64,000 bases of DNA from contig OZ316899.1 of NCBI GenBank assembly GCA_973895155.1, forward strand, positions 10,381,135 through 10,445,134. Reading direction: 5' to 3'. Position 1 is the stretch's first letter. Each line of letters opens with the position of its first letter. Origin of the DNA: Marsupella aquatica (taxonomy: Eukaryota > Plantae > Marchantiophyta). The notes under the pieces are model-generated. The model ran no database searches and was not told the origin of the DNA. It saw only the letters and a list, made by a program, of their open reading frames with translations. Made by a program: the position numbers and the translations under genes. This document shows positions 1,302-29,115 of this stretch, one piece after another.

Positions 1302-2284
1302 TTGGATGACGACGACTCCGACGCAGAAGGAAGCGACAACGAGACTGAAGCCAAAACAGAGGAAGAGGGTCAGGACCCAGAGGAGGAATTGATCCTTGCC
1401 TTGAGAGGGTTGAATGCGGAACCAGAGGATGATGTCAAGCCGGACGTCATCGTGGATAATTTGACCAAGCAGAACCAGGATGACGCGGGTGATACTTCAG
1501 TCCCGGGAGGTCATGGTGCTCGCAAGACGCGGGGGGTATCACCAAAATCCACAAGAGAACCTAAGGACAGGCGGCCCGCAAAGGAAAGACGGTTGGAGGA
1601 CCGTCCTCATACAACCCGCAAGGGCCCGGCCACTGACGACGGTCTGGGTCCGTTGACTCAAGACCAACGACTCATCTACGAGCAGTTGGAACACAACAAG
1701 GGGGTCCAGATTAAGTACTTACTTAGTCTGGGTAGTCAGAGTGCGTCGCGTCCCAAGGGGGGAATGGTAGTTGGACGGAGTATGTTCCAAGTGAACCAGC
1801 TACCGACTCCTCCAACTTACGATGGGGCCTACGAACAAAGTGGACAAAAGTTCCTGAGTTGGCTCTCCACGATGGAGATTCATCTCCAAGCGTGCGTTGA
1901 GCGTTCCACTTGGGCTACCGCAGTCGCTCCTTACCTAAAGGACTATGCCTTGACTTGGTACAAGTCATGGAAGAAGTCGCGAGAGGACTCCTCCTTGCCG
2001 TTAACTTGGGAAAACCTGGTTGAGGGTCTCCATGCTCATGTCACCACTAAGTACCCAGAGCGGCACGCTCAGAAATGTGTAACGAAGATGAGCTTCAAGG
2101 GTGATATCCAAAAGTTCATCACTTATTACCAGAATCAGTTGGCGTGTATCCCGGCGGGACAAGAGACCCTACATACACAGCTTCACAACTTTATCGTGAA
2201 GCTCTCGCCGTTGCTCAGGTAAAAGTTACAGGAAAAGCGTCATGAGTTCAAAATGCTTTCTGACGCCTTCGACAAGGCCACTAC
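1302..2284 (+). pseudogene. gag: gag, 5' part, of element A
   Basis: Retrotransposon gag-like text (PPTYDG...WL..ME...YLKDYALTWY...TWE). Premature stop at 2220; cut by element B at 2285. Confidence 0.8.
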
Positions 2285-5200
2285 TGTGGTGCGTCCCATG
2301 GCTCCCTAAACCCAAGAAACCCCCCAGCTCAAGCCGATTCCCGCAGGTTTCGCGCTTGGCGAGGCCGTTTCCGCGGCTTAGCGGCATGGGACGCTGCTAA
2401 CCTTCTACTACTACTATTAACATTTTACACACATATACTGGACAGATCCTTCATCGGGTCATGAGATACGTAGCCGGCCTAATATAGGCCTTCCCCTGTC
2501 TTCCCCTGTCTTCCCCTCCGTCTTGTTAGGTATGTTTGGATTCCGCCGCCGGAATGATCCCCAATAGGCTTGGTTAAGCCGCTAAGACCTCTCTCAGCTC
2601 GACACATCCAACTCTCACTCCCCTGCTTACTTTCCTTCTTTCTGTTGATGTGGGCACTCTTCACACAAGTTAATGCGACACACAAATAGCAAAATGACTC
2701 ATTCTGACTGAGTCATACCATGCACTTGCCATACAAACAGTACATCTCATACACAAGTTCTGCGAACTAAGCCGTGAGGCCAACTCTATTCAGCTCTTAG
2801 GCATGAGGAAACATGAATATACACAAGGATCACTGTATGACTAACCGAGAGCTTCTCGTACTACTTGATCCCAGCCCGGCTGGTGCAAACTAAAAACTTG
2901 CTAAAGAAGAGGCCCTGAGCTCCCCGCTGCCCAGGTACTTATCCTGGTAGTGGATCCGCCATTCTTTGCATCGTAAGCCTAATCTACTTAACAGTAATCT
3001 ACTTGCCCGAATCTACCTATGTACAGCAAGGCAGGAGCACAAGTGTTGCTCCTACCAGTGGGACCGCAATCCCACTAAGCTAAGTGTCAGGGCCGCTCCT
3101 GGTTCTGATCCTAATCCTAAACGTGGAGATCCGTGCCCGCCCTGCCCACTCACGCCTCCTCCCTCCACGTCCGCCCTCCCTAAAAGGAACGGCGCCCTTG
3201 CACCGTCACGACACCGGTGGTGGATCCTCAATGGACGCCCCCAACACTTCCTCCGCAGCCACTGCCGTTGGCCCGCCTACTGACAGATTACCTGCCCTTG
3301 ACCGAGTCAACTCTCCCTCGGCCTGACTGGGTCCACCTTCGGCTTTAGCCTCGACACCGGCCTCGGCAATACCCACGGCTTCGGCCTCAGCCACTCTCAC
3401 GGCTTCGGCTTCAGCCACTCCCTCAGCTTCGGCCTCCCCTTCCCCTAGGGTAGTTGGATCCTTAGCTGTGACCCTGTCTGGGGTCGGTGCCGGGTCTACC
3501 TCCTTGATCACCACGGCCTGTGAAGTCGTATTACTCCTTGACCCTGAAGGTTTCCGCTTCTTCTTCGTTGGTGGCTCGGCAGCTGGTCCCTTCCCCTTCC
3601 CACTTACCTCCGGCACTGGTGCAGGTGGCGCGGCTTGTCCTTCGGCAATTACCACCCCTGGTAACTGGTTTGTCCCAACAGGAGATGGACCTGCTGCAGC
3701 TAAGCATTTAAATACTGCGGCTTGTTTCTTCAGCCGCTCTGTTTGGTTGTCGGCCCGCCGCTGTAGGTTCTCCATCTTCCTCGTGATTTCCTCCAACTCC
3801 TCTTGGGTTTCATCCAGGTCCTTACGTGCCCCCTCCAGCTCGTTTTTGGCCTCCTCCTGCTCCCTGTGGGCTTCCTCCAATTCCTTCTTCAAGGTAGCCT
3901 TCTCCTCCTGGGTTGCTCTTAGCTCCTTGTCGAGCTCTGCAATGATGACAGACTCCATCTGGTTCATCTTGGCGTAAGTCTGTTCGAGCATCTCGTCCTT
4001 CTCCCTTAGGTCGGCCTTGAAGCTGGCCGTCAGGGACGCAAGCTCCTGCTGCAGCGCCATAATCCCTTGATAGGATTTCCCTAACTCGACCTCCTTCTGC
4101 TCAAGGGCTCCGCGGATTTTCTCGAGCTCCCCTTTCAACGCCCATTCCTTTCTTTGGGTCTCCGCCATGGCCCGGCTGTTGGCTGTTATGTGGGCCTCCT
4201 CTGTATTTTTCAGCTCTTGCTTCCACTTTTCCCTTTCTTTGATCGTGTCGGCCAACTCTTCCTGCGTCTGAGTCAGTTTATCCTTGATATTCTGATTATC
4301 AGCCTGCGCGGCGTCCAACTGCCCCTGCATGATGTTCAGCTCATGTCGTTTAATCCGCAGTTCATCTTGGGCTTTCTTGGCCGCCCTTAGATCTTCAATC
4401 TCGGCTTCCATCCTCCTAAGCCGCCGAATGACCTCGTCCTTCTTGCTTCTCTCTAAAGCCACCGCTTCTTCTAATTGGTGCTTCTCCAACTGCTCCCTAT
4501 GGAAAAAGGGTCCTACCTCCAACTCCTCTCCAAAGATGCCGAGCGCAAGTTCCCCACACATCTCACCATACTCCATGGCTCTATTCTTAGCGTAGGTGGA
4601 GTAAGTAGAAGTGATCGGCATCGCCCATCGTGGCCTCTGCTCCCAAGCCGTCCTGCGGATCTCTTCAATCGTGGCTAGAGGCTTGCTTCCTTTTTCGGCT
4701 AGCCGCCTGATGTCCTCCGGCCAATCTCCTCCTGGTAAATCCTTTTCCTTAGCCAGGGCGGCCTCTTCCTCCTGCTTGATTCACTCCTGAAATTCCTGCA
4801 CCGTCTGTTTTATGCCGTCGAAGCTCGGGGGAGCAACATCTGGTGGGGGAGACTCAGGGCTACTCTGCTGGTTGGGGTCCCCTCGCACTACCCTTGGAAG
4901 TGTGGGGACAAACCGGCCACAGGTCCTTACTCCTGGAACGTGATGGTCCGACCCATAGCCGGAATTATCATGGCTGCAGTCCTCCACTGCCTCCTCTACC
5001 TCTTGGATTTCCGGCTTCTCCCTCTCCTCTTCCTCGGTAGGAGCTTCAGGCAATTCTGCCTCAGATTCGGAGCTTGAGGTTCCCACGTACATTCGAACAC
5101 CTGGCTTGGATTCCGGCCTGATTCTCTCGTCTCCAGCAAAGGGGTTTTCTCTTGTGAGCCGGTGTAGGCCTACCTCTGTAGTAGTGTCCGGCATTGTTGC

Positions 5201-6947
5201 CGTTGCCGTTGTTGTTGTTGTTGCCGATGCCGATTTCTTTTCTTTCTCCAGTAGTTTCAGCAGACTCTGCATGCCTGGTTGCTGCATCGGCAAGTCTTCC
5301 TTCCTGGGCCTAAACACCTGCTCGATCGTAGGACTAACAGGTGGTTGAGGCTTCTCAGCCAACGGCCTCGGCGTTGGAGCTTCCTCGGGTGCCCTTACCT
5401 GCAGGGGAAGTACCGGGGCAAAAGTCTGACCTCTGGCATACCGGCACAACAGCGGCATGTGATAGCCAAGCCGCGACACGCTCCCCATGCCGATTACCTG
5501 CTGCTCCTCCTTTAAGATCTTCTTCAATTGGTTGAGGAGGTACCCGTTGTAGTCCCGGCTTGGGTCTGGCCTTTCTGCCAGATAGACCTGTGCCTTGCCG
5601 ATCTCTGCCCTCGGCAAGTTACAATGCATGGTCACCCGCAAGAAGTCGATCATCTCTCCTATGTGCGGGTTGGTGCAGGTGTTCCGGAAGAAGCCATTCT
5701 TCGTTGATGGCCCGGGGAACGACCGGAACTCCTTGTCAGGCAAGGTCTTCCTGGTATCAACTTTGGTCTTATTGCCCATCGGCAAGCCAAACACTTCGGC
5801 AATCACCTTGGGAGTAAGATAGAAATCCTTCCCATATATCCTCGTGCAATTGGTCTCGGGTTCCCATGACCCCACGAATTCTAATAGGTCTGACTCCGGT
5901 ACCTCCGGCTTCAGCCATGGTAATCTTACAAAGGCCTCCAAGCCGGATCCGGCCATGAAGCCTTGGTACTTCTTGGTCTGCATGGCCGTAAAGCATGCAT
6001 CCTCCTCCCGTGCAAAATGTAGTTGCACCTCCACCGGTAGGGTTGCCGCCCAGCCCTTCCAGGTGTCATCCCTGGTTGGAATGGCCTTGATGGGATCGAC
6101 CTCCTCCTCTTCGGCTTCTCCCTCTCTCCTGCTCTGCTGCTCGGCTGGCTTCTTTGGTGCCGTCGACCTCGTTCTTTTTGCCGGGGTGGCTTCATCGTTG
6201 ACGGCTCCCTTCCTCTTCATCTCTGCTGCCGTGGAGGTTTCTCCTAGCACCGTTGCCTGGGTCCACCTTTCCGTGCTACCCTTTAATTCCCAGTGTATGT
6301 CGTTGCAGTTCTTGATGGCCTCTCGGATGCCGACGACGCTGTCCTTGCAAAACAGAAGATCGTCGAGTTGATTGGAAGTAGGCGTCCACAGGAACTCGTC
6401 CTTGATGAGTTCGCCTCCTAAGAAAGCCGTCTTCTGCAGCTCCCACAATCGAGCGAGCTCCTGCCGTTCTCGAGCTGCCCTTTCTGACTCCTCGTCCTCG
6501 TAAGTCTTGATGTACTCAGTCGCCCGTTCGAACAGGCATCCCCAGAAATGTGCCGCTTGATTGACGTTGCTCATACCCTCCTTAGGTTGATCGTCGGTAT
6601 CTACTCTCTCCCCGAGTGCTTGCCTAAGCAGCTGACAGTAGTTGGCCTCCCGTAGTCGTCTGCCTAGTTCGTGCTCGCAAATGAGCCACTATTTCCTGCA
6701 AGCGCTCCTTACCCCTCTCCTTTGCCGGTCCTTCTTCCCGTTGATCCTTCCTAGCCGCCGACTCTTAACGCGCCCTAACCCTAATCGGGTTTTCACCCTC
6801 AGCCTTACCTCCGGCCTCTGCCCGGGTTCCATGGTTGCCCCTAATTGTTTATATTTTCCTTGTTTTGTCACTATACTAAGGTGTTCCTAGGGTGCCTTCC
6901 TGCTTTACCCACTTAACTGGCCGAGTGATTCCTGTCTAGGCATCACA
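2285..6947 (-). repeat. 3' LTR of element B (4663 bp)
   Basis: Colinear with 13172-17834 at a constant offset of 10887; about nine substitutions spotted by eye; bounded by the PPT. Confidence 0.96.
3206..6574 (-). pseudogene. LTR-encoded accessory ORF, 3'-LTR copy, split by one CGA>TGA change at 4783
   Basis: ORFs 4781..6574 and 3206..4621 are the two halves of the 1122-aa ORF at 14093..17461. Confidence 0.93.
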
Positions 6948-9900
6948 TAGCTCCCCACTTAATTGTGAAGCGTCCTCGCGAACAACTTCATCTTCGTCCA
7001 TATAGTATTTCTTGAGGCGGTCATAATGGATGCGAACTGGATATACCTCTCCCGTAATGTTGGCCAATTGCACGGAGCCATTGGGGAACATCATGGTTAC
7101 TCGAAAGGGTCCTAACCAGCGAGTGTAAAGCTTTCCTGGAAACCTACTATACCTACTGTCATAAAGTAGCACAAGATCACCGGTATGAATACTAACTACT
7201 TTTAACCTTTTATCATACTGCTGCTTCATGATATTCTGTCTATATTCTACTCTCTCGGCTGAAATCATTCTCGCTTCCTCTAAAGCTTCTAACCTATATT
7301 CTCGCTCCTTTAGGCTCTCCTCCGCTGAGGCTCTTTCCTCAATTGTAACTTGAAATGTCGGTATCTCAAGTTGCATGGGTACCAGGGCTTCTTGTCCAAA
7401 GGTTAAGAAGAAGGGTGTATGACCGGTAGTGGATTTATAGGCAAGATTGTAAGCAAAAACAGCAGCAAACAATTTATCATCCCAATCGAGTTTGTTCTGA
7501 GCTACTGTTTTGTTCAATATCTTTCCTATGATTCCGTTTGCTCGTTCTGTCAACCCGTTTGCCTTTGGATGGTAGGGAGTAGTAGGCCTATGTTTAACTA
7601 AATACTGCTCATTTAAACGACTAATTATATCATTCAAAAAATGGGTTCCTCTATCACTAACTAATTCTAGGGGTGCTCCATACCTGGTGAAGATCTGCTC
7701 ATACATGAATCTAGCCGTAGTAATTGCATCATCCTTCGTTGTTGGTCTGGCCTCTACCCATTTAGTTGCATAATCCGTAGCCAGGATTATGTACTTGTTC
7801 CGTCGAGGGTGGGTCAGTGGTTTCAGAGGTCCAATGTAATCAATACCCCACTTCTCGAATGGTGCCAGAGGTAGAATAGGGTGCAGTGGATGCCTGGTGG
7901 ACGCCCTTGGTCCGCCCGCTCGTTGACAAGGATCGCATTGTTTGATAAACTGATAGACATCTTTGTGCAAGGTGGGCCACCAGTAACCGGCATTTAATAT
8001 CTTCTTAGACGTGGTTACTGGGGCAAAATGTCCTCCGGCCTCCTCTCCATGCATGGCCCGTAGGACTCGTTTTACCTCTCTCTTCTCCAAACACCTTTGA
8101 ATCGTGCCGTTGATTCCATGCTTGTGCAGTATGCCTTTAATGCACTGATACTGTCTGACCTTCCGCACAAAGACTGCGGCTTGCTCTCGGCTTAATCCTG
8201 GCTGTAATCTGGAAGTGCTGAGAAATTGTAAAATCTCAGGGTACCATGTACCAGCTATTTCCACAACGAATAGCTCCTCGTCGGGGAATCGATCATCGAT
8301 GCAATCCGTGGCAGGTTTACCTGTGATCCTTGAAAAGAAGTCGGCATTGGCATGTAACTTTCCTGGCTTGATCCTCAGCTCATAGTCAAACTCCTGTAAT
8401 AGCAAAATCCATCTTGCTACTCTGCCTGTAAGGTCCGGCTTATTGACTAGGTACTTCAAACTTTCATGATCAGTATGAAAGATTACCTTGTACCCTAGTA
8501 AATAATGCCTAAACTTTTTACAAGAATAAATGACTCCTAATGCTTCTCTTTCCGTGGTAGAGTAGTTCCGTTCGGCATCGGCAAGCTGACGGCTTGCGAA
8601 GTATATGGGATGGTCCCTTCCTTTCTCATCCAACTGACTTAGTACTGAGCCAATACAGAAGCCCGAGACATCTACAAAAACATGAAAATCTTTGTTCCAG
8701 TCCGGTGCTATCATGACTGGGGCCTCTACTAACATCTGCTTCAATTCTACCACCGCTGTGACTCGTTCGGGTGTGGGTTCGAAGTCTGCTCCTGCCTTGA
8801 GCATATTGGTTAATGGTAAAGCTAGCTTGGCAAAATCCTTGATGAACCGGCGATAGTAACCAATGCATCCCAAGAAGGATCTTACATCCTTTATGTTCTT
8901 AGGTTGCATGATATCTAGCCATACTGCTAGCTTACCTTTGTCAATCTCAATGCCCTTCCTTGATACCTTGTGACCTAGTAGCACCCCCTCGGTTACTGCA
9001 AAAAAACATTTATCTGGGTGTAACTTGAGACCCACCTCCCTACATCTCATGAAGGTTTTCCTGAGGTATTTAGCATGTTTCGATGCCTTCCCGAATACTG
9101 CAAAGTCATCAATGAAGATTTCCATGAACTTTCTCAAGTAATCATGAAAAATGTTCACCATTAATCGTTGGAACATAGCTGGTGCGTTGCAGAGTCCAAA
9201 CGGCATACGATTGAAGACATAGATCCCCCATTCCGTGATGAAGGCCGTCTTGATTTGGTCTTCCTGCCGAATCCTGATTTGGTTATAACCAGAGTATCCA
9301 TCCATGAATGAATATAGTTCATGACTGGCTACCATGTCTAGTACCATATCAGTAAACGGTAAAGGAAAATGGTCTTTTAATGTTGCTTCATTCAGCTTCC
9401 TGTAATCCTGACAAACCCGGATCTTGGGTTTACCATCGGGTCCAGCTTTCTTGGGAACTATCACAATTGGAGACACCCAGTCTGAATGCAGGACTGGAGT
9501 GATGAATCCAGCTTCCACTAGTTTGTCGATTTCTGTTTTGACCAGCAGGGAATACCTCGGGTTCATCCTTCGAATTGGTTGTCGAAATGATTTGGCTCCT
9601 AACATGAGATCAATTCGATGTTCCCCTAGTGTTGGATCTACGCCCTTTAGATCTTGGTGACTCCATGCAAACACATCCTGAAATTCAATCAATAAGTCAC
9701 TGATCTCTTTCTCGAGCTCAGGTGCTAGGTTTCTCCCTAAGTTCAGTTCTCTTCCCTCTCCTAAGTCGAGCTTCCGATATTGCCGTGCTTGGATCATATT
9801 AATCTGCTTCTTCAAATTCGGGTCCAGTTCGGCTTCCAGTCTCTCTAATCTCATACCTCCATAAACTGGGATCTCGGCTGGACTAGCCGAGTCGGTCCCT

Positions 9901-10202
9901 TCCTTGGTGTCCATAGATTGTCTCCTTACCGGTCTATTCGGTTTTGAATTAGTGGTCGGCTCCCCTTCCTGCCTTGGCTCTGGATCGTGTCTGTCCATCT
10001 CATCCACCTCTTGCTCCTGAGAGTTAGGCCGCTGTGCTCTCTCCGCTTCTAATAGGGCCTCAATTTGTTCTGCCCTCGTAATCGGCTTGTATGCCGATCC
10101 CTTGGTATTTAATTCCTTGCCAATGATCGATGGCGTTGTGGACCCCGTCGGCTCTGCCACAACGCCTGCAGAAAATCCACTGTCCCTGCTACTGCTCCCC
10201 AC
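6936..10202 (-). CDS. pol: pol (RT-RNase H-integrase) of element B, probably expressed by -1 frameshift
   Basis: RT motifs (CQDYRKLN, MPFGLCNAP, FIDDF); RNase H (VDVS, ERNYSTTERE, NADFFSR); integrase HHCC and DDE (GIDYIGP, SDRGTHF, TERAN). No chromodomain and no second RNase H seen. Confidence 0.96.
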   Translation of the reverse strand: MGSSSRDSGFSAGVVAEPTGSTTPSIIGKELNTKGSAYKPITRAEQIEALLEAERAQRPNSQEQEVDEMDRHDPEPRQEGEPTTNSKPNRPVRRQSMDTKEGTDSASPAEIPVYGGMRLERLEAELDPNLKKQINMIQARQYRKLDLGEGRELNLGRNLAPELEKEISDLLIEFQDVFAWSHQDLKGVDPTLGEHRIDLMLGAKSFRQPIRRMNPRYSLLVKTEIDKLVEAGFITPVLHSDWVSPIVIVPKKAGPDGKPKIRVCQDYRKLNEATLKDHFPLPFTDMVLDMVASHELYSFMDGYSGYNQIRIRQEDQIKTAFITEWGIYVFNRMPFGLCNAPAMFQRLMVNIFHDYLRKFMEIFIDDFAVFGKASKHAKYLRKTFMRCREVGLKLHPDKCFFAVTEGVLLGHKVSRKGIEIDKGKLAVWLDIMQPKNIKDVRSFLGCIGYYRRFIKDFAKLALPLTNMLKAGADFEPTPERVTAVVELKQMLVEAPVMIAPDWNKDFHVFVDVSGFCIGSVLSQLDEKGRDHPIYFASRQLADAERNYSTTEREALGVIYSCKKFRHYLLGYKVIFHTDHESLKYLVNKPDLTGRVARWILLLQEFDYELRIKPGKLHANADFFSRITGKPATDCIDDRFPDEELFVVEIAGTWYPEILQFLSTSRLQPGLSREQAAVFVRKVRQYQCIKGILHKHGINGTIQRCLEKREVKRVLRAMHGEEAGGHFAPVTTSKKILNAGYWWPTLHKDVYQFIKQCDPCQRAGGPRASTRHPLHPILPLAPFEKWGIDYIGPLKPLTHPRRNKYIILATDYATKWVEARPTTKDDAITTARFMYEQIFTRYGAPLELVSDRGTHFLNDIISRLNEQYLVKHRPTTPYHPKANGLTERANGIIGKILNKTVAQNKLDWDDKLFAAVFAYNLAYKSTTGHTPFFLTFGQEALVPMQLEIPTFQVTIEERASAEESLKEREYRLEALEEARMISAERVEYRQNIMKQQYDKRLKVVSIHTGDLVLLYDSRYSRFPGKLYTRWLGPFRVTMMFPNGSVQLANITGEVYPVRIHYDRLKKYYMDEDEVVREDASQLSGELCDA
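6948..6962 (-). promoter_or_regulatory. Polypurine tract of element B
   Basis: Minus strand TTAAGTGGGGAGCTA directly before the 3' LTR TG. Confidence 0.8.
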
Positions 10203-13102
10203 TTAGCCGTTTCATCCAATTGGTCTACATCCTTAACTTCCTCCGGAATTGCAGCTAAAAAGGTGGATTCTATTGTAAAGCAGTCCTCGACCTCTTCGTC
10301 TTCTTCTTCCAAGTCACCTTCCATTGGTTCTTGCCATAATCCGCTGGGGGGTACCTCTGGTCCAAAGACACCTTCTTCGGTTAGGTTAGTGAAGCATTCT
10401 AACCAACGTACTTCATCGGCTGACTCCAGTCCACTATCGTACCCATCTACTTCCCTTATGCTTTTCCTACGGTCATCCTTAGTGTCCCAGGATACCGTGA
10501 TAGAGGGGGTCCCGAAAGTGAACTGCTTTTTACCCCAATCTTCTATTACCTCGGCTAGGTACAGCCATGGCCTACCAATCAATAGCCGGAATGACGTGGG
10601 ATTTACCGGCTTCATTACTACATAGTTAATGCTAAAGAAGATACCTCCTATCTCTGTCTTGATGCCGGTTAACACTCCCGTAGGAATGACCTGATATCCA
10701 TTGGCCATGTTCAACACTCTTCCAGTCATCTCCGGTGTTAGACCCCACCCTTTTGCTGTTGAATCAATCATAATACATACCCCTGATCCTCCATCGATGG
10801 GTACCCGTAGTAATAATTCTCCTTGAATCATTAATGGTAATGCTGGGGCTCCTTGATCTTCTTCTATCATTAGTACGTCGGATCTGGTTGCTACCTTGGG
10901 TAATCTCGGCTTGCCGAGAATAGCCTTCCTTAATTGCTTCCGGAAGTACGGGCTATTTTTCAATAGTTGACCTACTGTTGCCGAGACTCTAGATTCTAGT
11001 ACATCTTTAGCCAGGTCATAGGGAACAATCGGCTTCTCTTCTGGTGGTGTTTCCGTCTTGGATTCGGCCAGTTTTGCCACGCTAGTCTCCACAGCTGTTG
11101 GGTCTTCCGAAGCAAACAATGCTTTTGCTCGTTTTACATCCTTGGCAATGGCTTCGGTATTCTCCAGGGTTTCTAATTCTCTTAGTTGTTCCTTAACACT
11201 AGCCGTAACAGAGGGGTAGAACAACTTAGGATGATCTCGATTGAAGTCGCTATCTTGTGAAGGATTGGTTTCACTGGTGGGCTCATGGCTTACCTGTATT
11301 GCCGGAGCCCTCCCTTCTCCTTCTGTTGATGTTGACGAAGAGTCGATCCTTTCCTCCGTAACCTTCCCTTTATTTTTGGCCAGCCCATCCCACCTTTCCT
11401 TCCTTCTGGTAGATCGAGTAGAGACCCGGTAGCAATCATGATCTAAATCCTCCTCTGAGAAGGTTGATAGGGCTTCGGCCTCATCATCAGATGGTACGAA
11501 CTCTGCCTCGGCATCCTCTTGCCATCCTAGTTCGATGTGGTTGATTTGAACTCCTCCGGGGGTAGTACCTGGCGGTAAGATCTTGATCGGCAAAAGCTTA
11601 TGATTTGCGGCCAGGCCTGCCAACCAAGTAGGACATTGCCCTAGCATATGACCTTCCTGTCGGCATCCCATACATAGCTGAGCTGGTTGTCCATCACCCT
11701 GTTTGCGTGCATTCGGGCATTCTCTAGCAAAATGGCCAGGTTGACCACAATTATAGCACGCCGCAAATCTTTGCACATTCGGCCTAGGAGGTACTGACGG
11801 GTTCTGAATAATCCGAGGATACATCTCTCCTGGATTGTTCCTTAACCCTGACCACAGAGATGCAGGTCTGTTGGATAGGTCTCGTGCTCCAGTCTCACTG
11901 ATGCCGAAAACACTATCAGCGGCATCTCCCAAAAAGTACTCTACTTCTCCCTGACATGGTCTGATCTCGGCCACATGCCGAACATGATTAGTATTAAGCT
12001 TAGGACAAGCATCTTTATGGTGTCCGGTTTTATAACATAAGGCACACCATACAGAGCTATCCTCCTGTACTACCTTCTTCTTTGGTTTTACCTCTGCAAT
12101 GATAGCCTTAAGTTGCTCGGTAAGGGCTACGATGTTATCTGGTGGCTTAGCCTCCATCTTGACTTTCGTCTTCCCTCTCCTTCTGCCCTTCCTTTTCCTA
12201 GTTTTTTCTTCTTCAGAACTAGAAGATGACTCACTCTTGCTACTCCCACTATTCGAGCTTGACTTATCACTTCTAGACTTCTTGGAATGTTTCTTCTTCT
12301 TATCTTTTTTCTTGTGGGGTGATCCCTCCTCTGATGAGGAACTCTCAGACTTAAGCTGTTTCTTCCGGCTTGTGATATCTGCATTAATGTATAATTGAAT
12401 ATCCTTAATTGCTTCGGCTAAGGTCTTCGGGTTCTCCTTCCTAATTGCAAAACTCATCTTCTGTGGCAAAGCATTCACCAACCATTGAAGTTGCATACCT
12501 TCAGATGCATTGGTCTTTGTACGTCTTACCAGTTTCTGAAAGCGTTGCAAGAACTTCCTGAAGGATTTGTTCTCCTTGAACCGAAGTTGTCCCAACTTCA
12601 GCACTGCTAGTTCTGAAGTTCCAATGGGTCGAAACTCCTTAACAAAGAGTGTTTTGAAGATATCCCAGATGGCTTGATCTTCCACATCTAATGCTCTGTA
12701 CCAAGGCCTAGCCTCACCCTTGAACAGGCCGGGAAGAATCTGCATCTTGATGGCCGATTCTCCATTTGCTGCAGCGGTTCCCTCGAAATCATCCAACCAT
12801 TCGTCCGGATCCTCATCTCCTCTCCCATGAAATGCCTTGTAATGTATGCGCGACCGCTGGCTCAATCTGGTCCCTGGCCTCTCGTCTGGCCGTGCCTCTG
12901 GTTCCCCCATGTCGGTTGGAGACTCACTTCTCCTTACCGACTCTTCTTCTGGTATGTCTTCTTCGACGCCACTTCCAGTTTCGGAGCTACCAGCTCTTTC
13001 TGCCCCTCTCAGTCGCTGTGTATCATGCCACCCGGCGAGCTGCTGCAGTCGAGCTCTCTCCCGTTGAATCACTCTTTCTTCCCTCGGCGTAAGGTCAGTC
13101 AT
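10109..13102 (-). CDS. gag: gag-protease of element B
   Basis: Gag core (FHGRGDEDPDEWL), three CX2CX4HX4C knuckles, aspartic protease motif PIDGGSGVCIM. Confidence 0.93.
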   Translation of the reverse strand: MTDLTPREERVIQRERARLQQLAGWHDTQRLRGAERAGSSETGSGVEEDIPEEESVRRSESPTDMGEPEARPDERPGTRLSQRSRIHYKAFHGRGDEDPDEWLDDFEGTAAANGESAIKMQILPGLFKGEARPWYRALDVEDQAIWDIFKTLFVKEFRPIGTSELAVLKLGQLRFKENKSFRKFLQRFQKLVRRTKTNASEGMQLQWLVNALPQKMSFAIRKENPKTLAEAIKDIQLYINADITSRKKQLKSESSSSEEGSPHKKKDKKKKHSKKSRSDKSSSNSGSSKSESSSSSEEEKTRKRKGRRRGKTKVKMEAKPPDNIVALTEQLKAIIAEVKPKKKVVQEDSSVWCALCYKTGHHKDACPKLNTNHVRHVAEIRPCQGEVEYFLGDAADSVFGISETGARDLSNRPASLWSGLRNNPGEMYPRIIQNPSVPPRPNVQRFAACYNCGQPGHFARECPNARKQGDGQPAQLCMGCRQEGHMLGQCPTWLAGLAANHKLLPIKILPPGTTPGGVQINHIELGWQEDAEAEFVPSDDEAEALSTFSEEDLDHDCYRVSTRSTRRKERWDGLAKNKGKVTEERIDSSSTSTEGEGRAPAIQVSHEPTSETNPSQDSDFNRDHPKLFYPSVTASVKEQLRELETLENTEAIAKDVKRAKALFASEDPTAVETSVAKLAESKTETPPEEKPIVPYDLAKDVLESRVSATVGQLLKNSPYFRKQLRKAILGKPRLPKVATRSDVLMIEEDQGAPALPLMIQGELLLRVPIDGGSGVCIMIDSTAKGWGLTPEMTGRVLNMANGYQVIPTGVLTGIKTEIGGIFFSINYVVMKPVNPTSFRLLIGRPWLYLAEVIEDWGKKQFTFGTPSITVSWDTKDDRRKSIREVDGYDSGLESADEVRWLECFTNLTEEGVFGPEVPPSGLWQEPMEGDLEEEDEEVEDCFTIESTFLAAIPEEVKDVDQLDETAKWGAVAGTVDFLQALWQSRRGPQRHRSLARN
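10132..10178 (-). promoter_or_regulatory. -1 programmed ribosomal frameshift signal
   Basis: G GAT TTT in the gag frame, a 5-nt spacer, then a 10-bp stem GGCGTTGTGG/CCACAACGCC, all inside the gag/pol overlap; pol is in the -1 frame. Confidence 0.8.
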
Positions 13103-13150
13103 TACCTACGCTTCCGTTCTAACTTCATATCTCACGGCTTAAGAAATGCC

Positions 13151-13167
13151 CCCTCCATCTAGCGCCA
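13151..13167 (-). promoter_or_regulatory. Primer binding site of element B
   Basis: Minus strand TGGCGCTAGATGGAGGG, 4 nt after the 5' LTR; TGGCG-type PBS as in plant non-chromovirus gypsy elements. Confidence 0.8.
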
Positions 13168-13171
13168 AAAA

Positions 13172-16100
13172 TGTGGTGCGTCCCATGGCTCCCTAAACCC
13201 AAGAAACCCCCCAGCTCAAGCCGATTCCCGCAGGTTTCGCGCTTGGCGAGGCCGTTTCCGCGGCTTAGCGGCATGGGACGCTGCTAACCTTCTACTACTA
13301 CTATTAACATTTTACACACATATACTGGACAGATCCTTCATCGGGTCATGAGATACGTAGCCGGCCTAATATAGGCCTTCCCCTGTCTTCCCCTGTCTTC
13401 CCCTCCGTCTTGTTAGGTATGTTTGGATTCCGCCGCCGGAATGATCCCCAATAGGCTTGGTTAAGCCGCTAAGACCTCTCTCAGCTCGACACATCCAACT
13501 CTCACTCCCCTGCTTACTTTCCTTCTTTCTGTTGATGTGGGCACTCTTCACACAAGTTAATGCGACACACAAATAGCAAAATGACTCATTCTGACTGAGT
13601 CATACCATGCACTTGCCATACAAACAGTACATCTCATACACAAGTTCTGCGAACTAAGCCGTGAGGCCAACTCTATTCAGCTCTTAGGCATGAGGAAACA
13701 TGAATATACACAAGGGTCACTGTATGACTAACCGAGAGCTTCTCGTACTACTTGATCCCAGCCCGGCTGGTGCAAACTAAAAACTTGCTAAAGAAGAGGC
13801 CCTGAGCTCCCCGCTGCCCAGGTACTTATCCTGGTAGTGGATCCGCCATTCTTTGCATCGTAAGCCTAATCTACTTAACAGTAATCTACTTGCCCGAATC
13901 TACCTATGTACAGCAAGGCAGGAGCACAAGTGTTGCTCCTACCAGTGGGACCGCAATCCCACTAAGCTAAGTGTCAGGGCCGCTCCTGGTTCTGATCCTA
14001 ATCCTAAACGTGGAGATCCGTGCCCGCCCTGCCCACTCACGCCTCCTCCCTCCACGTCCGCCCTCCCTAAAAGGAACGGCGCCCTTGCACCGTCACGACA
14101 CCGGTGGTGGATCCTCAATGGACGCCCCCAACACTTCCTCCGCAGCCACTGCCGTTGGCCCGCCTACTGACAGATTACCTGCCCTTGACCGAGTCAACTC
14201 TCCCTCGGCCTGACTGGGTCCACCTTCGGCTTCAGCCTCGACACCGGCCTCGGCAATACCCACGGCTTCGGCCTCAGCCACTCTCACGGCTTCGGCTTCA
14301 GCCACTCCCTCGGCTTCGGCCTCCCCTTCCCCTAGGGTAGTTGGATCCTTAGCTGTGACCCTGTCTGGGGTCGGTGCCGGGTCTACCTCCTTGATCACCA
14401 CGGCCTGTGAAGTCGTATTACTCCTTGACCCTGAAGGTTTCCGCTTCTTCTTCGTTGGTGGCTCGGCAGCTGGTCCCTTCCCCTTCCCACTTACCTCCGG
14501 CACTGGTGCAGGTGGCGCGGCTTGTCCTTCAGCAATTACCACCCCTGGTAACTGGTTTGTCCCAACAGGAGATGGACCTGCTGCAGCTAAGCATTTAAAT
14601 ACTGCGGCTTGTTTCTTCAGCCGCTCTGTTTGGTTGTCGGCCCGCCGCTGTAGGTTCTCCATCTTCCTCGTGATTTCCTCCAACTCCTCTTGGGTTTCAT
14701 CCAGGTCCTTACGTGCCCCCTCCAGCTCGTTTTTGGCCTCCTCCTGCTCCCTGTGGGCTTCCTCCAATTCCTTCTTCAAGGTAGCCTTCTCCTCCTGGGT
14801 TGCTCTTAGCTCCTTGTCGAGCTCTGCAATGATGACAGACTCCATCTGGTTCATCTTGGCGTAAGTCTGTTCGAGCATCTCGTCCTTCTCCCTTAGGTCG
14901 GCCTTGAAGCTGGCCGTCAGGGACGCAAGCTCCTGCTGCAGCGCCATAATCCCTTGATAGGATTTCCCTAACTCGACCTCCTTCTGCTCAAGGGCTCTGC
15001 GGATTTTCTCGAGCTCCCCTTTCAACGCCCATTCCTTTCTTTGGGTCTCCGCCATGGCCCGGCTGTTGGCTGTTATGTGGGCCTCCTCTGTATTTTTCAG
15101 CTCTTGCTTCCACTTTTCCCTTTCTTTGATCGTGTCGGCCAACTCTTCCTGCGTCTGAGTCAGTTTATCCTTGATATTCTGATTATCAGCCTGCGCGGCG
15201 TCCAACTGCCCCTGCATGATGTTCAGCTCATGTCGTTTAATCCGCAGTTCATCTTGGGCTTTCTTGGCCGCCCTTAGATCTTCAATCTCGGCTTCCATCC
15301 TCCTAAGCCGCCGAATGACCTCGTCCTTCTTGCTTCTCTCTAAAGCCACCGCTTCTTCTAATTGGTGCTTCTCCAACTGCTCCCTATGGAAAAAGGGTCC
15401 TACCTCCAACTCCTCTCCAAAGATGCCGAGCGCAAGTTCCCCACACATCTCACCATACTCCATGGCTCTATTCTTAGCGTAGGTGGAGTAAGTAGAAGTG
15501 ATCGGCATCGCCCATCGTGGCCTCTGCTCCCAAGCCGTCCTGCGGATCTCTTCAATCGTGGCTAGAGGCTTGCTTCCTTTTTCGGCTAGCCGCCTGATGT
15601 CCTCCGGCCAATCTCCTCCTGGTAAATCCTTTTCCTTAGCCAGGGCGGCCTCTTCCTCCTGCTTGATTCGCTCCTGAAATTCCTGCACCGTCTGTTTTAT
15701 GCCGTCGAAGCTCGGGGGAGCAACATCTGGTGGGGGAGACTCAGGGCTACTCTGCTGGTTGGGGTCCCCTCGCACTACCCTTGGAAGTGTGGGGACAAAC
15801 CGGCCACAGGTCCTTACTCCTGGAACGTGATGGTCCGACCCATAGCCGGAATTATCATGGCTGCAGTCCTCCACTGCCTCCTCTACCTCTTGGATTTCCG
15901 GCTTCTCCCTCTCCTCTTCCTCGGTAGGAGCTTCAGGCAATTCTGCCTCAGATTCGGAGCTTGAGGTTCCCACGTACATTCGAACACCTGGCTTGGATTC
16001 CGGCCTGATTCTCTCGTCTCCAGCAAAGGGGTTTTCTCTTGTGAGCCGGTGTAGGCCTACCTCTGTAGTAGTGTCCGGCATTGTTGCCGTTGCCGTTGTT

Positions 16101-17834
16101 GTTGTTGTTGCCGATGCCGATTTCTTTTCTTTCTCCAGTAGTTTCAGCAGACTCTGCATGCCTGGTTGCTGCATCGGCAAGTCTTCCTTCCTGGGCCTAA
16201 ACACCTGCTCGATCGTAGGACTAACAGGTGGTTGAGGCTTCTCAGCCAACGGCCTCGGCGTTGGAGCTTCCTCGGGTGCCCTTACCTGCAGGGGAAGTAC
16301 CGGGGCAAAAGTCTGACCTCTGGCATACCGGCACAACAGCGGCATGTGATAGCCAAGCCGCGACACGCTCCCCATGCCGATTACCTGCTGCTCCTCCTTT
16401 AAGATCTTCTTCAATTGGTTGAGGAGGTACCCGTTGTAGTCCCGGCTTGGGTCTGGCCTTTCTGCCAGATAGACCTGTGCCTTGCCGATCTCTGCCCTCG
16501 GCAAGTTACAATGCATGGTCACCCGCAAGAAGTCGATCATCTCTCCTATGTGCGGGTTGGTGCAGGTGTTCCGGAAGAAGCCATTCTTCGTTGATGGCCC
16601 GGGGAACGACCGGAACTCCTTGTCAGGCAAGGTCTTCCTGGTATCAACTTTGGTCTTATTGCCCATCGGCAAGCCAAACACTTCGGCAATCACCTTGGGA
16701 GTAAGATAGAAATCCTTCCCATATATCCTCGTGCAATTGGTCTCGGGTTCCCATGACCCCACGAATTCTAATAGGTCTGACTCCGGTACCTCCGGCTTCA
16801 GCCATGGTAATCTTACAAAGGCCTCCAAGCCGGATCCGGCCATGAAGCCTTGGTACTTCTTGGTCTGCATGGCCGTAAAGCATGCATCCTCCTCCCGTGC
16901 AAAATGTAGTTGCACCTCCACCGGTAGGGTTGCCGCCCAGCCCTTCCAGGTGTCATCCCTGGTTGGAATGGCCTTGATGGGATCGACCTCCTCCTCTTCG
17001 GCTTCTCCCTCTCTCCTGCTCTGTTGCTCGGCTGGCTTCTTTGGTGCCGTCGACCTCGTTCTTTTTGCCGGGGTGGCTTCATCGTTGACGGCTCCCTTCC
17101 TCTTCATCTCTGCTGCCGTGGAGGTTTCTCCTAGCACCGTTGCCTGGGTCCACCTTTCCGTGCTACCCTTTAATTCCCAGTGTATGTCGTTGCAGTTCTT
17201 GATGGCCTCTCGGATGCCGACGACGCTGTCCTTGCAAAACAGAAGATCGTCGAGTTGATTGGAAGTAGGTGTCCACAGGAACTCGTCCTTGATGAGTTCG
17301 CCTCCTAAGAAAGCCGTCTTCTGCAGCTCCCACAATCGAGCGAGCTCCTGCCGTTCTCGAGCTGCCCTTTCTGACTCCTCGTCCTCGTAAGTCTTGATGT
17401 ACTCAGTCGCCCGTTCGAACAGGCATCCCCAGAAATGTGCCGCTTGATTGACGTTGCTCATACCCTCCTTAGGTTGATCGTCGGTATCTACTCTCTCCCC
17501 GAGTGCTTGCCTAAGCAGCTGACAGTAGTTGGCCTCCCGTAGTCGTCTGCCTAGTTCGTGCTCGCAAATGAGCCACTATTTCCTGCAAGCGCTCCTTACC
17601 CCTCTCCTTTGCCGGTCCTTCTTCCCGTTGATCCTTCCTAGCCGCCGACGCTTAACGCGCCCTAACCCTAATCGGGTTTTCACCCTCAGCCTTACCTCCG
17701 GCCTCTGCCCGGGTTCCATGGTTGCCCCTAATTGTTTATATTTTCCTTGTTTTGTCACTATACTAAGGTGTTCCTAGGGTGCCTTCCTGCTTTACCCACT
17801 TAACTGGCCGAGTGATTCCTGTCTAGGCATCACA
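13172..17834 (-). repeat. 5' LTR of element B (4663 bp)
   Basis: Copy of 2285-6947; bounded by the TSD and PBS. Confidence 0.96.
14093..17461 (-). CDS. Intact 1122-aa accessory protein encoded inside the LTR (plant-mobile-domain/Transposase_32-like segment plus long coiled coil)
   Basis: Uninterrupted 3.4-kb ORF. Segment LLEFV...IYGKDFYLTPKVIAEVFGLP resembles plant gypsy extra-ORF domains; E/K/L-rich heptads in the C-terminal half. A homolog is present in element C. Confidence 0.85.
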   Translation of the reverse strand: MSNVNQAAHFWGCLFERATEYIKTYEDEESERAARERQELARLWELQKTAFLGGELIKDEFLWTPTSNQLDDLLFCKDSVVGIREAIKNCNDIHWELKGSTERWTQATVLGETSTAAEMKRKGAVNDEATPAKRTRSTAPKKPAEQQSRREGEAEEEEVDPIKAIPTRDDTWKGWAATLPVEVQLHFAREEDACFTAMQTKKYQGFMAGSGLEAFVRLPWLKPEVPESDLLEFVGSWEPETNCTRIYGKDFYLTPKVIAEVFGLPMGNKTKVDTRKTLPDKEFRSFPGPSTKNGFFRNTCTNPHIGEMIDFLRVTMHCNLPRAEIGKAQVYLAERPDPSRDYNGYLLNQLKKILKEEQQVIGMGSVSRLGYHMPLLCRYARGQTFAPVLPLQVRAPEEAPTPRPLAEKPQPPVSPTIEQVFRPRKEDLPMQQPGMQSLLKLLEKEKKSASATTTTTATATMPDTTTEVGLHRLTRENPFAGDERIRPESKPGVRMYVGTSSSESEAELPEAPTEEEEREKPEIQEVEEAVEDCSHDNSGYGSDHHVPGVRTCGRFVPTLPRVVRGDPNQQSSPESPPPDVAPPSFDGIKQTVQEFQERIKQEEEAALAKEKDLPGGDWPEDIRRLAEKGSKPLATIEEIRRTAWEQRPRWAMPITSTYSTYAKNRAMEYGEMCGELALGIFGEELEVGPFFHREQLEKHQLEEAVALERSKKDEVIRRLRRMEAEIEDLRAAKKAQDELRIKRHELNIMQGQLDAAQADNQNIKDKLTQTQEELADTIKEREKWKQELKNTEEAHITANSRAMAETQRKEWALKGELEKIRRALEQKEVELGKSYQGIMALQQELASLTASFKADLREKDEMLEQTYAKMNQMESVIIAELDKELRATQEEKATLKKELEEAHREQEEAKNELEGARKDLDETQEELEEITRKMENLQRRADNQTERLKKQAAVFKCLAAAGPSPVGTNQLPGVVIAEGQAAPPAPVPEVSGKGKGPAAEPPTKKKRKPSGSRSNTTSQAVVIKEVDPAPTPDRVTAKDPTTLGEGEAEAEGVAEAEAVRVAEAEAVGIAEAGVEAEAEGGPSQAEGELTRSRAGNLSVGGPTAVAAEEVLGASIEDPPPVS

Positions 17835-17839
17835 ACTAC

Positions 17840-24594: not shown

Positions 24595-25743
24595 ATGTCG
24601 CACACGATCCTTTCCAGTTCGGCCATACGATTTTGGATGCAGTTCCTGTGTATTGGAGGGCACTTGGCCGACTTGTTGAAACATGCCAACCCACGACGAT
24701 ACGAGATCGAACGTGAATATGAGAGAGCCATCCGCCTAGCAGGCCGCCATCACTATCTCCTTAACTTTGATTACCCATCCGAGAGCGAGCTTTACCAACC
24801 CAAAGAAATATTAGGGTACTTCTTCAACGGAGACAAATATATCAGCTTCTGGGAGGCATTGCTTCGGCTCCCGGACGAGGTCTTCAATATCTCGGGCATG
24901 ATCGACTTATAGCGGCACCACTTTGACCACATCCCTGCTCGGGTCCGGGACATCATCAACAGCGAGTCCAGTGCTACCCGATCTACGAGGGCGTCTAGAC
25001 TTGCATCAGAAAACCTCTACCGGCACCTATAGAATTTCATGGAAACTACACCATCAACCACCGGTGCCAGCCCAGCCATGCCCGTACCCGCACCAGCCCA
25101 AGCTCAGGCTCAGTCTCAGTCTCAGCCTCAACCTAGCCGATCCCCATCGCCGGTCGCCCGCCAGTACAAGTACGCTCCATCGTCAACGCCGTGGACCTCA
25201 GCAACGATGAAGACGATACCTTACCCCTGCTCAGGCGGCCTAGAGGAGCAAGCACCCTGGGAGCCGGCACTACATCGCCCCTTCCCTAGGCCCGGACCGA
25301 GTAGCGGCTCCAGCGGATAACACGGTGACCGTAGCCTCCTCAGCCCCAATACTAACAGCGGTGGCACTACCCATACCCGATCGAGATGATGGGGAGGTAT
25401 CACCCTCCCCGAGCCATCACCGGAGCCAGTCTTGGGGAAAGAGGAGGAAGGAACCCGCAGCTGTATCCGGGCTACCCATGGCCACGGTAGCCGCGGCCAA
25501 GGTACCAATGCATCGCATGGGGGAAAACGTGCATAAGAACATCCTCCACCCCAAACATGCGGTGTACTTGAAGACTTAGGGGTTCGAGCACCTCGCCTCT
25601 CTCCCCTGGAACACCTACAGATACTACGGGGAGGACATAATGGAGTTCGTCAAGAATTATGATGACGTCCGTCAGCATACTCGGCTGCGGGGGAGGAATA
25701 TGTCCCTCACAGAGGAGCGGCTCAGGATGATCTTTGGGCTACC
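24595..25743 (+). pseudogene. Accessory ORF of element C, 5' part
   Basis: GFEHLASLPW...DIMEFVKNY...TRLRGRNMSLTEERLRMIFGL aligns with B GLEAFVRLPW...DLLEFVGSW...TRIYGKDFYLTPKVIAEVFGL; TATAAAA at 24491. Confidence 0.78.
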
Positions 25744-25983
25744 AGTCGCGGAACTTGACTACCTTAACACTTAGCTCCGGCGTTGCTGACTCCGACGCCA
25801 AGCTCCCTTATGGTCCAACCTCGAATAGGCCATCCGGGGAGAACTTAGCATGGGGAGACTTGTGGGCAATGAGACGTGGCACTGGCGAGGCAAGGGACCA
25901 AGATGGGGACACACACTAAGGACTTGGACTAGCCTATGGCTGGTCGGGTCAAGGGGAAATGGGCCGGGCTCAAGGATGGCCGT
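25744..25983 (+). repeat. 5' fragment of an A-family LTR
   Basis: Matches 22189-~22428; cut by element F. Confidence 0.9.
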
Positions 25984-28900
25984 TGTCATGCCGAAAGATT
26001 TCGGCTTAGGAATGGCTTTTATAGGGGATGATGGGCGAGGCCTCCCGGTTGGGTTGCGTGCATGCTGACTCGGAGGGGCTACTTGGTTGGATGGATTGAG
26101 GTTTGGTGATTGGGTGACTCGTCGTCACCAGGTTTGGTGTTTGGGTGAGTCATCAGGCTTGGAGTTTGGATGAGCCTCGCTGATGGTAGCTGGCTCAGGG
26201 TGGATGGTTGGGTTTCCGATGCTACTTAAGACTTGAGCCTCGGCTCATTGAGGTTGGCGGTTGTCTATTGAGATCTGTTGAGTTGCATTCTGTGAGTTCT
26301 GCTCCATTCTGTGGAACTCGACTGTTGTGGCGGCGGTTTTGGAATTCTGGGCAAGTGTTGGATCCAGGTGTGGATTTTTTTATCCAGGCGGGGATTTCTC
26401 AAGTTTGGAGTCTCGTCAATCTAGGCGATGATTTCTCGAGTTTGGAGCCTCGTTGGTCTAGGCCCGAGTTCCGTGTGAGCTATTTTAGACTAGTGGAGTA
26501 GCTAGTCAAGTTTTGGTTTTGTGAGCTAAGGAGGTTCCGTCAGATTTTGAATAGTTAGTCACTCGAGGAGTTCTACTCGACAAGTTAGAGGTAGCGGCCC
26601 GCCGTAGGGCCAGCTACCAGACTCTTGCGGGCAAGCTTACTCGAGGGCACCTATTGTAACCTTTGTGAGAAAAGTAAAAAATATAAAGGAGTGAGAGTTC
26701 ACTCCAAAAAGTGCTTGTTGCCTGTCCCAATTGCAGCCAAAAACGCGCAGTTTGCCCGAGGAGCCCCTAACTTTAAGTCCTTGCGACATTGGCAACCATA
26801 GTGGGGAATCCTTGGGGCGATTGGATGAGATGGGTGACTATGATGAAGTCAATCGGATCTCAAGCATCGTCATGTCGATGATGAGAACCATAAGGAAGGA
26901 GGCGGGATACTCGAGACAAGGAAAGAAGGGTTAGGTTTGAAGAAGAGGAAATGAGCGAGAAAAGAGCCAGAGAAAGGGAAACCGATCAGGAAAGACCCGG
27001 GCTGGGTGCTTGGCAGGGATGTGGACTAGGCCATGTCCCCGGAGGTTGTAGCTGAGAAGTTATGGAGTCAACAAGCTCAAGGGTTTACCAATGCCGAGTT
27101 CTTTGGCAGTATGAGGCAGGAGATCCAGGAAGTGATCTTGGAGAGATCCAAGAGGAAACGGTTTTACAAAGAGGGCCCTCACATCTTGATGGGAGAGGCT
27201 GGCGAGACGGAAATTGGGAGTTTTCGAACTTACACTGTTGGGGCGTCCATGGGTTCAGGTAGTACGCTTGCTGGCCCCAAAGAGTCAGACTTGGGGAAAA
27301 CAAAGAGGGTCAAGTCCCTTGAAGAGGAGCTCATGAACTTGGACAATGAGTTCTTCGATGCGGAAGAGGAGCTCATGGGAACCGGAAGCAAAGCTGGATC
27401 TGTGGCAAACAGGGACCCAACTGAAGGGGGAGAATGAGAAAGCATTACCGCGCAGTTGAGGGCCATTCATGTCATGGCCTCAATGAAAGGAAACGGTTAT
27501 GCTTACCGAGATGGATATTGGGCTCGAGCAAGTCCGGAGAGCGAGTGCCAGTTGGAAGGAATGGAAGGCAAGGTGCGGGCGCTCATTGATACTGGCTCGG
27601 AGATCAACTTGATGGATCCAAAGGTGTTTCAAAAGGGGAATTGGCCGGTGGATAATGAGTTTCTTTGGAGTGTGAACTCGGTGAGTTCAATGAAGGACTA
27701 TCTTTGGGGCGGATGTCCAAATGTGATGGTCAAGTTCGGGAATGTCAAGCAGGCTTGTAACATTTTTGTTCATGAGCACTTGTTGTTTCCGGTGATACTA
27801 GGCATGCCGTTCATCACTGAATGGAGGATGGAGACGAAGGTTCTGGACGATACTACCTTCACGGTGAAGGTTCGAGGCAAAGATGATAAGGAGGTGGTTC
27901 AGTTTCCGGTGGTTCTACCTGGAAATAAGAGGAACCAAAAGCAGCTGCGAGATCCAACAGCGGCAAAAGTTGGCATTGCTATGGGGGAGAACCGAGATGC
28001 TAAGATGGATCTAAGTGCAAAGTTCAAAGGGGAGCCAATTGCGGACCAAAAGATGGGAAATCTAGTGTTTAAGGAAGAGTGTTACTCAGGAGAGCTACTG
28101 GACATTGGGAAGAATCTGAGTGACCATGGGAAGCGGCTGAAACAGGATGGTGAAGAGTTCAAAGACATTCGAGTGAATTCTGATAAGTTCATTCTTAGAG
28201 AGGGCTACCTTTGGCGGAAACCTAAGGGCCCCATGCTAGTATCGAGGAGAGTTATCGATTCTAAGGATGAGCAAAAGCGGATTTTTGAGGAAGTCTATGA
28301 TGCTGAGGTCAAAGGCGATTTGAAAGGAATAAGGGCGAAGGTCTGTGAGCATATCCGAAGGGAGTATTGGTGGCCAGATTTGTATTGGGATGTTCAAGAG
28401 TCGGTATGCTGACAATCGAGGGATCCGTCACAACTTGAAGAGGCAGATTCAAGAGCTTGATCGGATTGACTATCGAGTCGTTGACATATGGGAGAGAGTG
28501 AAGGTTTGCAAGGTGCGAACTAGAGATGAAATGGACTCAAGTTCCGACTTGAGTGAATTTGAAGATGAGGCATTGGTCTAGGCGCATCCGTTGGACTTGA
28601 GTTTCGAAAGTGGCTTGACTGGTTCTGATTTGGATGAGTTGGACTTTGAGTTTTTGGAAAGTGGAGTGCCTAAGGCCGAGTCTGAAGGCTTTGGGTTTGA
28701 GTTTCTTGAGGAGGAAGTGGTCCAGGCGCATGGCTCGAGTTCGGACTCAGATTTAGAGGAAATCTGATGGATTGGAGCAGACCGGAGGCTGCTCAGGTTT
28801 ACTGGGGGAGGATGTCATGCCAAAAGATTTTGGCTCAGGAATGGCTTTTATAGGGGATGATGGGCGAGGCCTCCCAGTTGGGTTGCGTGCATGCTGACTC

Positions 28901-29114: not shown

Positions 29115-29115
29115 A

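Follow-up and report, generated by a model that had tools for sequence, protein, structure and literature searches.

Can a plant retrotransposon keep a gene of its own inside its LTRs, and what would the encoded protein do for the element? The question is raised by one locus in the window (the whole 64-kb stretch of Marsupella aquatica DNA analyzed here), where a sequence-only reading had described 4.66-kb LTRs that each contain a complete 1,122-codon gene. The answer that we propose, and that we take for a little better than an even bet, is that this is an Athila-related element (element A) whose 4.66-kb LTR holds a conserved accessory gene, encoding a VANC-like nuclear DNA-binding factor that would probably keep its own family active.

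Element A is a young insertion with well-defined LTRs

Element A lies on the minus strand and measures 15,550 bp in total, with an internal region of 6,224 bp (Table 1). Its LTRs form the single 4.67-kb direct repeat found in the window by self-comparison and, when aligned end to end (17834-13172 vs 6947-2285), differ by 8 transitions and 1 transversion, with no indels. The TSD (ACTAC), the LTR pair, the PBS-like tract and the PPT are those of a Ty3/gypsy LTR retrotransposon, and the LTR termini, TG and CA, form an inverted repeat at 6/7 positions. The LTR limits claimed from the sequence were confirmed: TSD, PBS-like tract and PPT agree, and the termini can be taken as correct because contigs of the public run X1 join the left and right flanks over one TSD copy and show four joints exactly at 13172 or 17834. 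No tRNA gene was found in the 64-kb window. The K2P distance between the LTRs is 0.0019 and element A is a young, recent insertion, with an age of roughly 0.07-0.2 million years if substitution rates of 1.3e-8 to 5e-9 are assumed. It lies nested among other retroelements, and LTR termini joined to the LTRs of other copies are seen in contigs.

One could argue that a one-off duplication or an assembly artefact produced the 4.66-kb repeats and that the ORF is a neutral passenger, and the 3' copy of the ORF is in fact already broken. This explanation is largely refuted and hardly credible in view of the TSD, the PBS, the PPT, termini that recur exactly in independent contigs, the 9 differences between the repeats, the same layout in 5/5 relatives and the synonymous excess described below.

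Table 1. Coordinates of the features discussed, as positions in the window
Feature	Position	Strand	Remarks
5' LTR	13172..17834	-	4,663 bp, TG...CA
3' LTR	2285..6947	-	4,663 bp, 9 substitutions vs 5' LTR
TSD copies	17835..17839 and 2280..2284		ACTAC, 5 bp
PBS-like tract	13150..13167	-	starts with TGG, 4 nt past 5' LTR
Polypurine tract (PPT)	6951..6960	-	inside last pol codons, 3 nt before 3' LTR
gag and protease-like region	10109..13102	-	997 aa; Retrotrans_gag, zinc knuckle
pol (RT, RNase H, integrase)	6936..10202	-	overlaps gag by 94 nt
Accessory ORF, intact copy	14093..17461	-	1,122 aa, in 5' LTR
Accessory ORF, 3' LTR copy	3206..6574	-	broken, premature stop at codon 598
TATAAA	17735..17740	-	LTR position 95; candidate accessory-gene promoter (inferred)
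TATA-like CTATATTA	13367..13374	-	~200 nt before LTR end; candidate gag-pol/genomic RNA promoter (inferred)
28-nt motif	13414..13441	-	about 90% shared with tail of element C
Conserved globular domain, aa 168-393	16283..16960	-	predicted VANC21-like fold; Transposase_32/ATHILA-like features
Long coiled coil (predicted), ~aa 699-961	14579..15367	-	crude heptad scan
Element C accessory-ORF homologue, decayed	25496..30463	+	two pieces around an insertion, after pol remnant and TATAAAA

Element A is probably related to Athila

The internal region is almost entirely coding, in the order GAG-(PR)-RT-RH-INT, as in Ty3/gypsy; the protease was recognized by eye from its motif and gave no Pfam hit. The pol frame, stop included, runs 12 nt into the 3' LTR, which places the PPT within the last pol codons. 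The only RNase H domain that Pfam found in pol is RT_RNaseH, with neither an additional RNase H (aRH) nor a chromodomain. The nearest Pol relatives are one protein at 69% and Calypogeia fissa proteins at 67-68%. In an RT-RH tree of 58 rows, drawn from 20 of 80 loci and 35 of 120 proteins and built without curated Athila, Tat, Phygy or Selgy references, element A grouped with its best Pol relatives, including Calypogeia fissa (100/100). Next to this group is a clade of five metagenome loci, L001-L005 (100/95), both being part of a larger group that includes Riccia (100/98). The non-seed group as a whole (92/90) has as its sister angiosperm rows that we take for Athila-like.

Elements of the Athila clade are described, in the accessible text of Neumann 2019 (PMC6317226), as having no aRH, no chromodomain, a 5-bp TSD and a PBS mostly of the tRNA-Asp type. 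Element A shares the first three of these characters, and its PBS-like tract differs from the PBS of L001 and L002. Phygy and Selgy are given there with a 4-bp TSD, no extra ORF and sizes of 4.4-10 kb (PMC6317226), so the 5-bp TSD and the extra ORF exclude them, as does the size of 15,550 bp; an identity with Tat/Ogre/Retand is excluded by the missing aRH. Judged by these characters and by a tree without curated Athila references, element A is probably an Athila-related Ty3/gypsy retrotransposon.

The accessory gene lies inside the LTR

Given that the PPT is at the pol end, the accessory gene is located inside the LTR. The ORF (17461-14093) starts 373 nt inside the 5' LTR and occupies 72.2% of it, and the stop-free frame runs for 1,160 codons, compared with a maximum of 407 in 300 base shuffles. 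The claim that each LTR holds a complete gene had to be abandoned: seven of the LTR differences fall within the ORF (4 synonymous, 2 residue changes and the stop at codon 598 of the 3' copy), and the 3' copy is split into ORFs of 597 and 471 codons, leaving the gene intact only in the 5' LTR.

Regarding expression, the TATAAA at 17740-17735 and the ATG-free leader that had been described are present, with no ATG from 17719 to the ORF start at 17461. A TATA-like box ahead of the ORF in element A and its relatives fits the proposal that the LTR is a self-contained expression cassette. Element A and L001 each have one TATA-like box at the LTR head and another 150-200 nt ahead of the LTR end (in L001, TATAAAA at 150 nt), suggesting two promoters, with the ORF in U3. 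Under the mechanism that we propose, plus-strand priming at the pol-end PPT would copy what was once the stretch between pol and the LTR into both LTRs, the gene would lie in U3 and be transcribed from the TATA box near the LTR start, and the box near the LTR end would start the gag-pol RNA. If U3 is indeed where the ORF lies, new copies descending from this one would receive the broken 3' version and depend on other copies.

The ORF could instead belong to a long R or U5, with the LTR-head TATA starting the genomic RNA, the ORF as its first cistron (ORF0/Ogre ORF1-like) and inheritance from the 5' copy. The best TATA box of element A, at LTR position 95, would suit this arrangement, and the intact ORF is the 5' one. 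Yet the second TATA-like box 150-200 nt before the LTR end (element A, L001) speaks for U3, and strong-stop DNA would need to be about 4.5 kb long, which is unusual in reverse transcription. We consider this placement unlikely.

Each insertion would add two gene copies to the genome. The idea that solo LTRs also spread the gene does not hold, since solo LTRs cannot transpose; they would keep one copy after the loss of gag-pol. Contig depth over the ORF relative to the internal median was 4.2 in X1, 3.2 in X2 and 1.9 in X5, with a similar LTR tail (X6 was excluded for low cover), which, depth being no copy number, does no more than hint at solo LTRs.

The same layout is found in relatives

A Pol scan of metagenome contigs gave 349 relatives. 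Among the 80 loci listed, five (L001-L005, 53-56% identical) extend beyond the pol end, the others being short or distant. In 5/5, a conserved stretch ends in a purine tract followed by 2-3 nt and then TG, as in element A, and downstream of this junction come a TATA-like box and a sense ORF, the box having a pyrimidine-rich stretch after it in the majority of cases. Short LTRs with an internal ORF, the layout that would contradict the earlier reading, were not seen in these five informative relatives, where the PPT/TG junction is always upstream of the ORF. The order pol - PPT - TG - TATA-like box - ORF is common to element A and its relatives.

In L001 and L002, the contigs further include the LTR end ahead of the PBS, and this end forms an inverted repeat with the post-pol start (7/8 and 9/9). 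The LTR-end and post-pol parts have no sequence in common, so the LTRs must exceed about 2.2 and 1.5 kb, respectively, and the ORF begins 660 nt (L001) and 514 nt (L002) inside them. In none of the relatives does a contig span two whole LTRs. In L003-L005, it is the junction that would place the ORF in the LTR, because the tails of L004 and L005 share no sequence with that of L001, and purine tracts also follow the ORF in L004. By profile, the ORFs of L002, L004 and L005 match the ORF family of element A (prob 93%, E 3e-7, 164 columns), with no match by BLASTP; an N-terminal domain is present in all three, and the two complete ones, L004 and L005, also have a coiled coil and a low-complexity tail. 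Besides, the window contains a second family, element C, with a pol remnant 62% identical and two pieces of an accessory-ORF homologue (E 1e-17 and 1e-16); its PPT region is missing.

The ORF shows an excess of synonymous variants

Selection was assessed on the best-supported read and contig differences, 40 of 1,152 (17 of them in the ORF) and 40 of 183. Among those listed, 53 distinct ORF variants comprise 23 synonymous and 30 nonsynonymous changes and no stops, compared with a synonymous share of 0.27 expected from changes of these types (p=0.007, crude omega 0.48). As the variants have contigs in common, they are not independent observations. The excess is located in aa 1-400 (9/16 synonymous, omega 0.27); the rest of the ORF, with 14/37, gave no significant excess (p=0.11). 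For comparison, 8/10 pol variants are synonymous. These counts are consistent with purifying selection on the ORF, whose absence would have spoken against the earlier reading. From 26 indels, 12 were listed, with 8 in the 921-bp LTR tail and 3 in the ORF (1 in frame and 2 in the last 25 codons). No common ORF deletion appears among 15 of 200 joints listed, nor does the codon-598 stop among the 40 of 1,152 variants listed.

The accessory protein has a predicted VANC-like fold

An exact look-up in the protein collection returned 0/9 window proteins, and word-indexed homologue searches gave no match, the second one covering only 1,303-3,720 aa. By exhaustive search we obtained 23 matches to aa 1-420 of the accessory ORF, the best with 41% over aa 161-385; three of the ten looked up are C. 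fissa proteins. P0128, P0130 and P0132, which match aa 5-160 only, were excluded from the alignments, and P0136, a bacterial repeat protein, was dropped as spurious.

Pfam Transposase_32 (PF20167) and ATHILA ORF-1 (PF03078) gave no hit above the cut-off in element A, the 23 homologues or L002, L004 and L005, and the similarity to these families by hhalign was weak (E 0.023, prob 2%). The same two families are the language-model neighbours of the protein (Atlas 0.88-0.92, 144-165 shared features). Neither DUF1985 nor PF10536 (PMD) was hit in Pfam. Searches of the PDB by sequence found no match for P0001 and only coiled-coil rows for alignment A4 (E>=0.09). A first structure model (pLDDT 65) had no Foldseek match in the viral and PDB libraries, the former being tried with this model only. 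A later, better model matched the VANC21-like fold (PDB 9lnj/9lnk) over 204-210 of 226 residues, at 7-13% identity, and the globular domain is accordingly predicted to have the VANC DNA-binding fold.

The sense ORFs after pol in Athila have been called env-like in the accessible part of PMC7264820, and the long coiled coil would also fit an Env-like membrane or movement protein. We find this very unlikely for element A, given the lack of any membrane segment (best 19-residue Kyte-Doolittle mean 1.04), the basic NLS-like clusters and the fold match to a DNA-binding protein.

A possible anti-silencing function

VANC proteins are reported to recognize short motifs and to demethylate cognate copies (PMC5735166; PMC10398659), and to resemble MAIN/PMD in structure and oligomerize by coiled coils (PMC13547354; 10.1101/2024.09.27.615353); PMD-A is described as Gypsy-encoded, in an extra ORF of Ogre/Tat elements (PMC5418596). 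From these likenesses, there is about an even chance that the accessory protein is a nuclear, family-specific anti-silencing or activating factor. Such a protein would form oligomers, recognize LTR sequence specific to its family and, acting in trans, either counter silencing or activate transcription. Against this, no VANC-style enriched motif array was found in the non-coding LTR of element A, and PMD proteins act in silencing too. In the LTR tail of L001, ATCCGG occurs at 25/kb vs 5.5-6.5/kb in its coding parts, which is not the case in all relatives.

The same gene and layout could also serve integration or the particle, with the protein binding cDNA ends or host chromatin and steering insertion to repeat-rich regions. 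The nested position of element A, an integrase without chromodomain and the missing motif array agree with this. However, nested elements are frequent in plant genomes, an ORF with a TATA-like box of its own suits a diffusible trans factor, and the nearest solved fold is that of a sequence-specific anti-silencing protein, so we deem such a role rather unlikely.

Returning to the anti-silencing reading, a broader version of it is less likely than not: in a whole non-seed-plant lineage of Athila relatives the LTR would be an anti-silencing cassette, in which each full copy and each solo LTR expresses, under a promoter of the gene itself, a VANC-fold protein that binds LTR sequence specific to the family and lifts silencing in trans, and the Athila env-like/Transposase_32, PMD and VANC proteins would be one ancient, pre-angiosperm, retrotransposon-borne superfamily of DNA-binding proteins. 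In element A, an accessory ORF of the Athila type is placed in the LTR, as it is across the lineage, and the VANC-like function proposed for it can be tested. Annotation treats plant LTRs as non-coding and expects extra ORFs in the internal region, and an LTR gene of about a thousand codons would be missed by standard pipelines. In such a lineage, solo LTRs would amount to retained genes rather than inert remnants. What Athila-type extra ORFs do is a long-standing question, for which the fold link supplies a candidate function open to testing; the link also bears on the origin of VANC/PMD, which published work, in its accessible parts, treats within angiosperms.

Comparison with known systems

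Retroviral genes such as MMTV sag, HIV/SIV nef and foamy virus bel/tas are LTR genes expressed apart from gag-pol, of about 200-350 codons and mostly in partial overlap with U3. The analogy with sag and nef drawn earlier stands for the position of the gene, but the protein of element A is closer to plant proteins of the Athila/PMD/VANC type. Its ORF is unrelated in sequence to the retroviral genes and has 1,122 codons wholly inside the LTR. Among plant elements, Retrosat2/RIRE3 and Grande resemble element A in their long LTRs and extra ORF, which in them is internal: Retrosat2/RIRE3 have LTRs >3 kb and an ORF0 upstream of gag-pol (PMC3485330), and Grande gene23, with its own promoter and a nuclear product, is antisense after pol (PMC7264820). 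In the literature searched, with most subscription journals outside it, we found no report of a plant retrotransposon gene wholly inside an LTR.

PMD proteins (PMD-A; host MAIN/MAIL1) are reported structural kin of VANC and Gypsy-encoded extra ORFs (PMC13547354; 10.1101/2024.09.27.615353; PMC5418596). The element A protein differs in having no PF10536 hit; the PMD surveys concern angiosperms and, in their accessible parts, do not describe PMD as LTR-located. VANC21, from the Mutator-like VANDAL21 of Arabidopsis, is likewise a transposon-encoded accessory protein with a globular domain and a coiled coil, whereas element A is a retrotransposon of a non-seed host whose protein has 7-13% identity and no DUF1985, with no motif array in the LTR.

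Finally, in the RT-RH tree the group of element A is sister to angiosperm sequences taken as Athila-like, and element A shares with Athila a 5-bp TSD and the lack of aRH and chromodomain. Both have a sense ORF after pol, and that of element A has Transposase_32 and ATHILA as language-model neighbours, although without a Pfam hit or a membrane segment. In Athila the sense extra ORF is described as internal, between pol and the 3' LTR (PMC7264820). In element A the PPT precedes the ORF, so that the priming site would lie on the opposite side of it, and the ORF is duplicated in both LTRs.

Reading frames and LTR of the probably Athila-related element

In the probably Athila-related Ty3/gypsy element A, the frame for gag and protease shares 94 nt with the RT frame (10109-10202, minus strand), and no canonical slippery heptamer was found within this overlap. 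Given that its close relative P0005 has a single continuous ORF, the overlap in A may be a break particular to this copy, or else a frameshift of a non-standard type. A small arginine-rich ORF in the LTR shares the frame of the long, 1,122-codon accessory ORF, and a stop codon intervenes before the latter is reached. Since it begins directly past the TATA box, it would fall outside an mRNA from that candidate promoter.

A fraction of 0.27-0.80 of the words of A's LTR (13172-17834) was present in the sequencing runs X1-X7, under five organism labels; close species, mixed samples or transfer could each account for this spread. Regarding the metagenome-contig relatives of A, TCCGGA/ATCCGG, a palindromic word, occurs very often all through L001 (1-1393), L002, L004 and L005, is 4-fold denser in the LTR tail of L001, and was not found in A.

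Neighbouring elements

A is inserted into a further Gypsy element (gag at 1764-2222; protease, RT and integrase at 18063-21137), which adjoins the integrase of element C, the second family, at ~23624. Window positions 1-24339 form a nest of three levels. Element C carries TATAAAA near 24491 and shares a 28-nt motif with the tail of A's LTR, its LTR-ORF homologue is interrupted by a 3.4-kb insertion, and its segment 24334-24522 has a second, isolated occurrence at 54623-54812. The Copia element encodes an uninterrupted polyprotein of 1,545 aa.

Further features of the window
Feature	Position	Strand	Remark
47-codon arginine-rich ORF	17719-17576	-	head of A's LTR
Element C	23606-31400	+	second family, pol then decayed LTR-ORF homologue
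CACTA Transposase_21 remnant	35396-36073	+	–
Gypsy element	39255-48768	+	329-bp LTRs (98%)
Copia element	55082-60769	-	identical 198-bp LTRs
DUF7869 ORF	62066-63382	-	E 3e-42

Finally, the coding region of the Gypsy element with 329-bp LTRs contains a C5 DNA methyltransferase ORF (43418-44827; PF00145, E 9e-11), in the order gag, methyltransferase, RT, and its integrase ends in a PHD finger (E 7e-11). Retrotransposons with a methyltransferase are known from algae.
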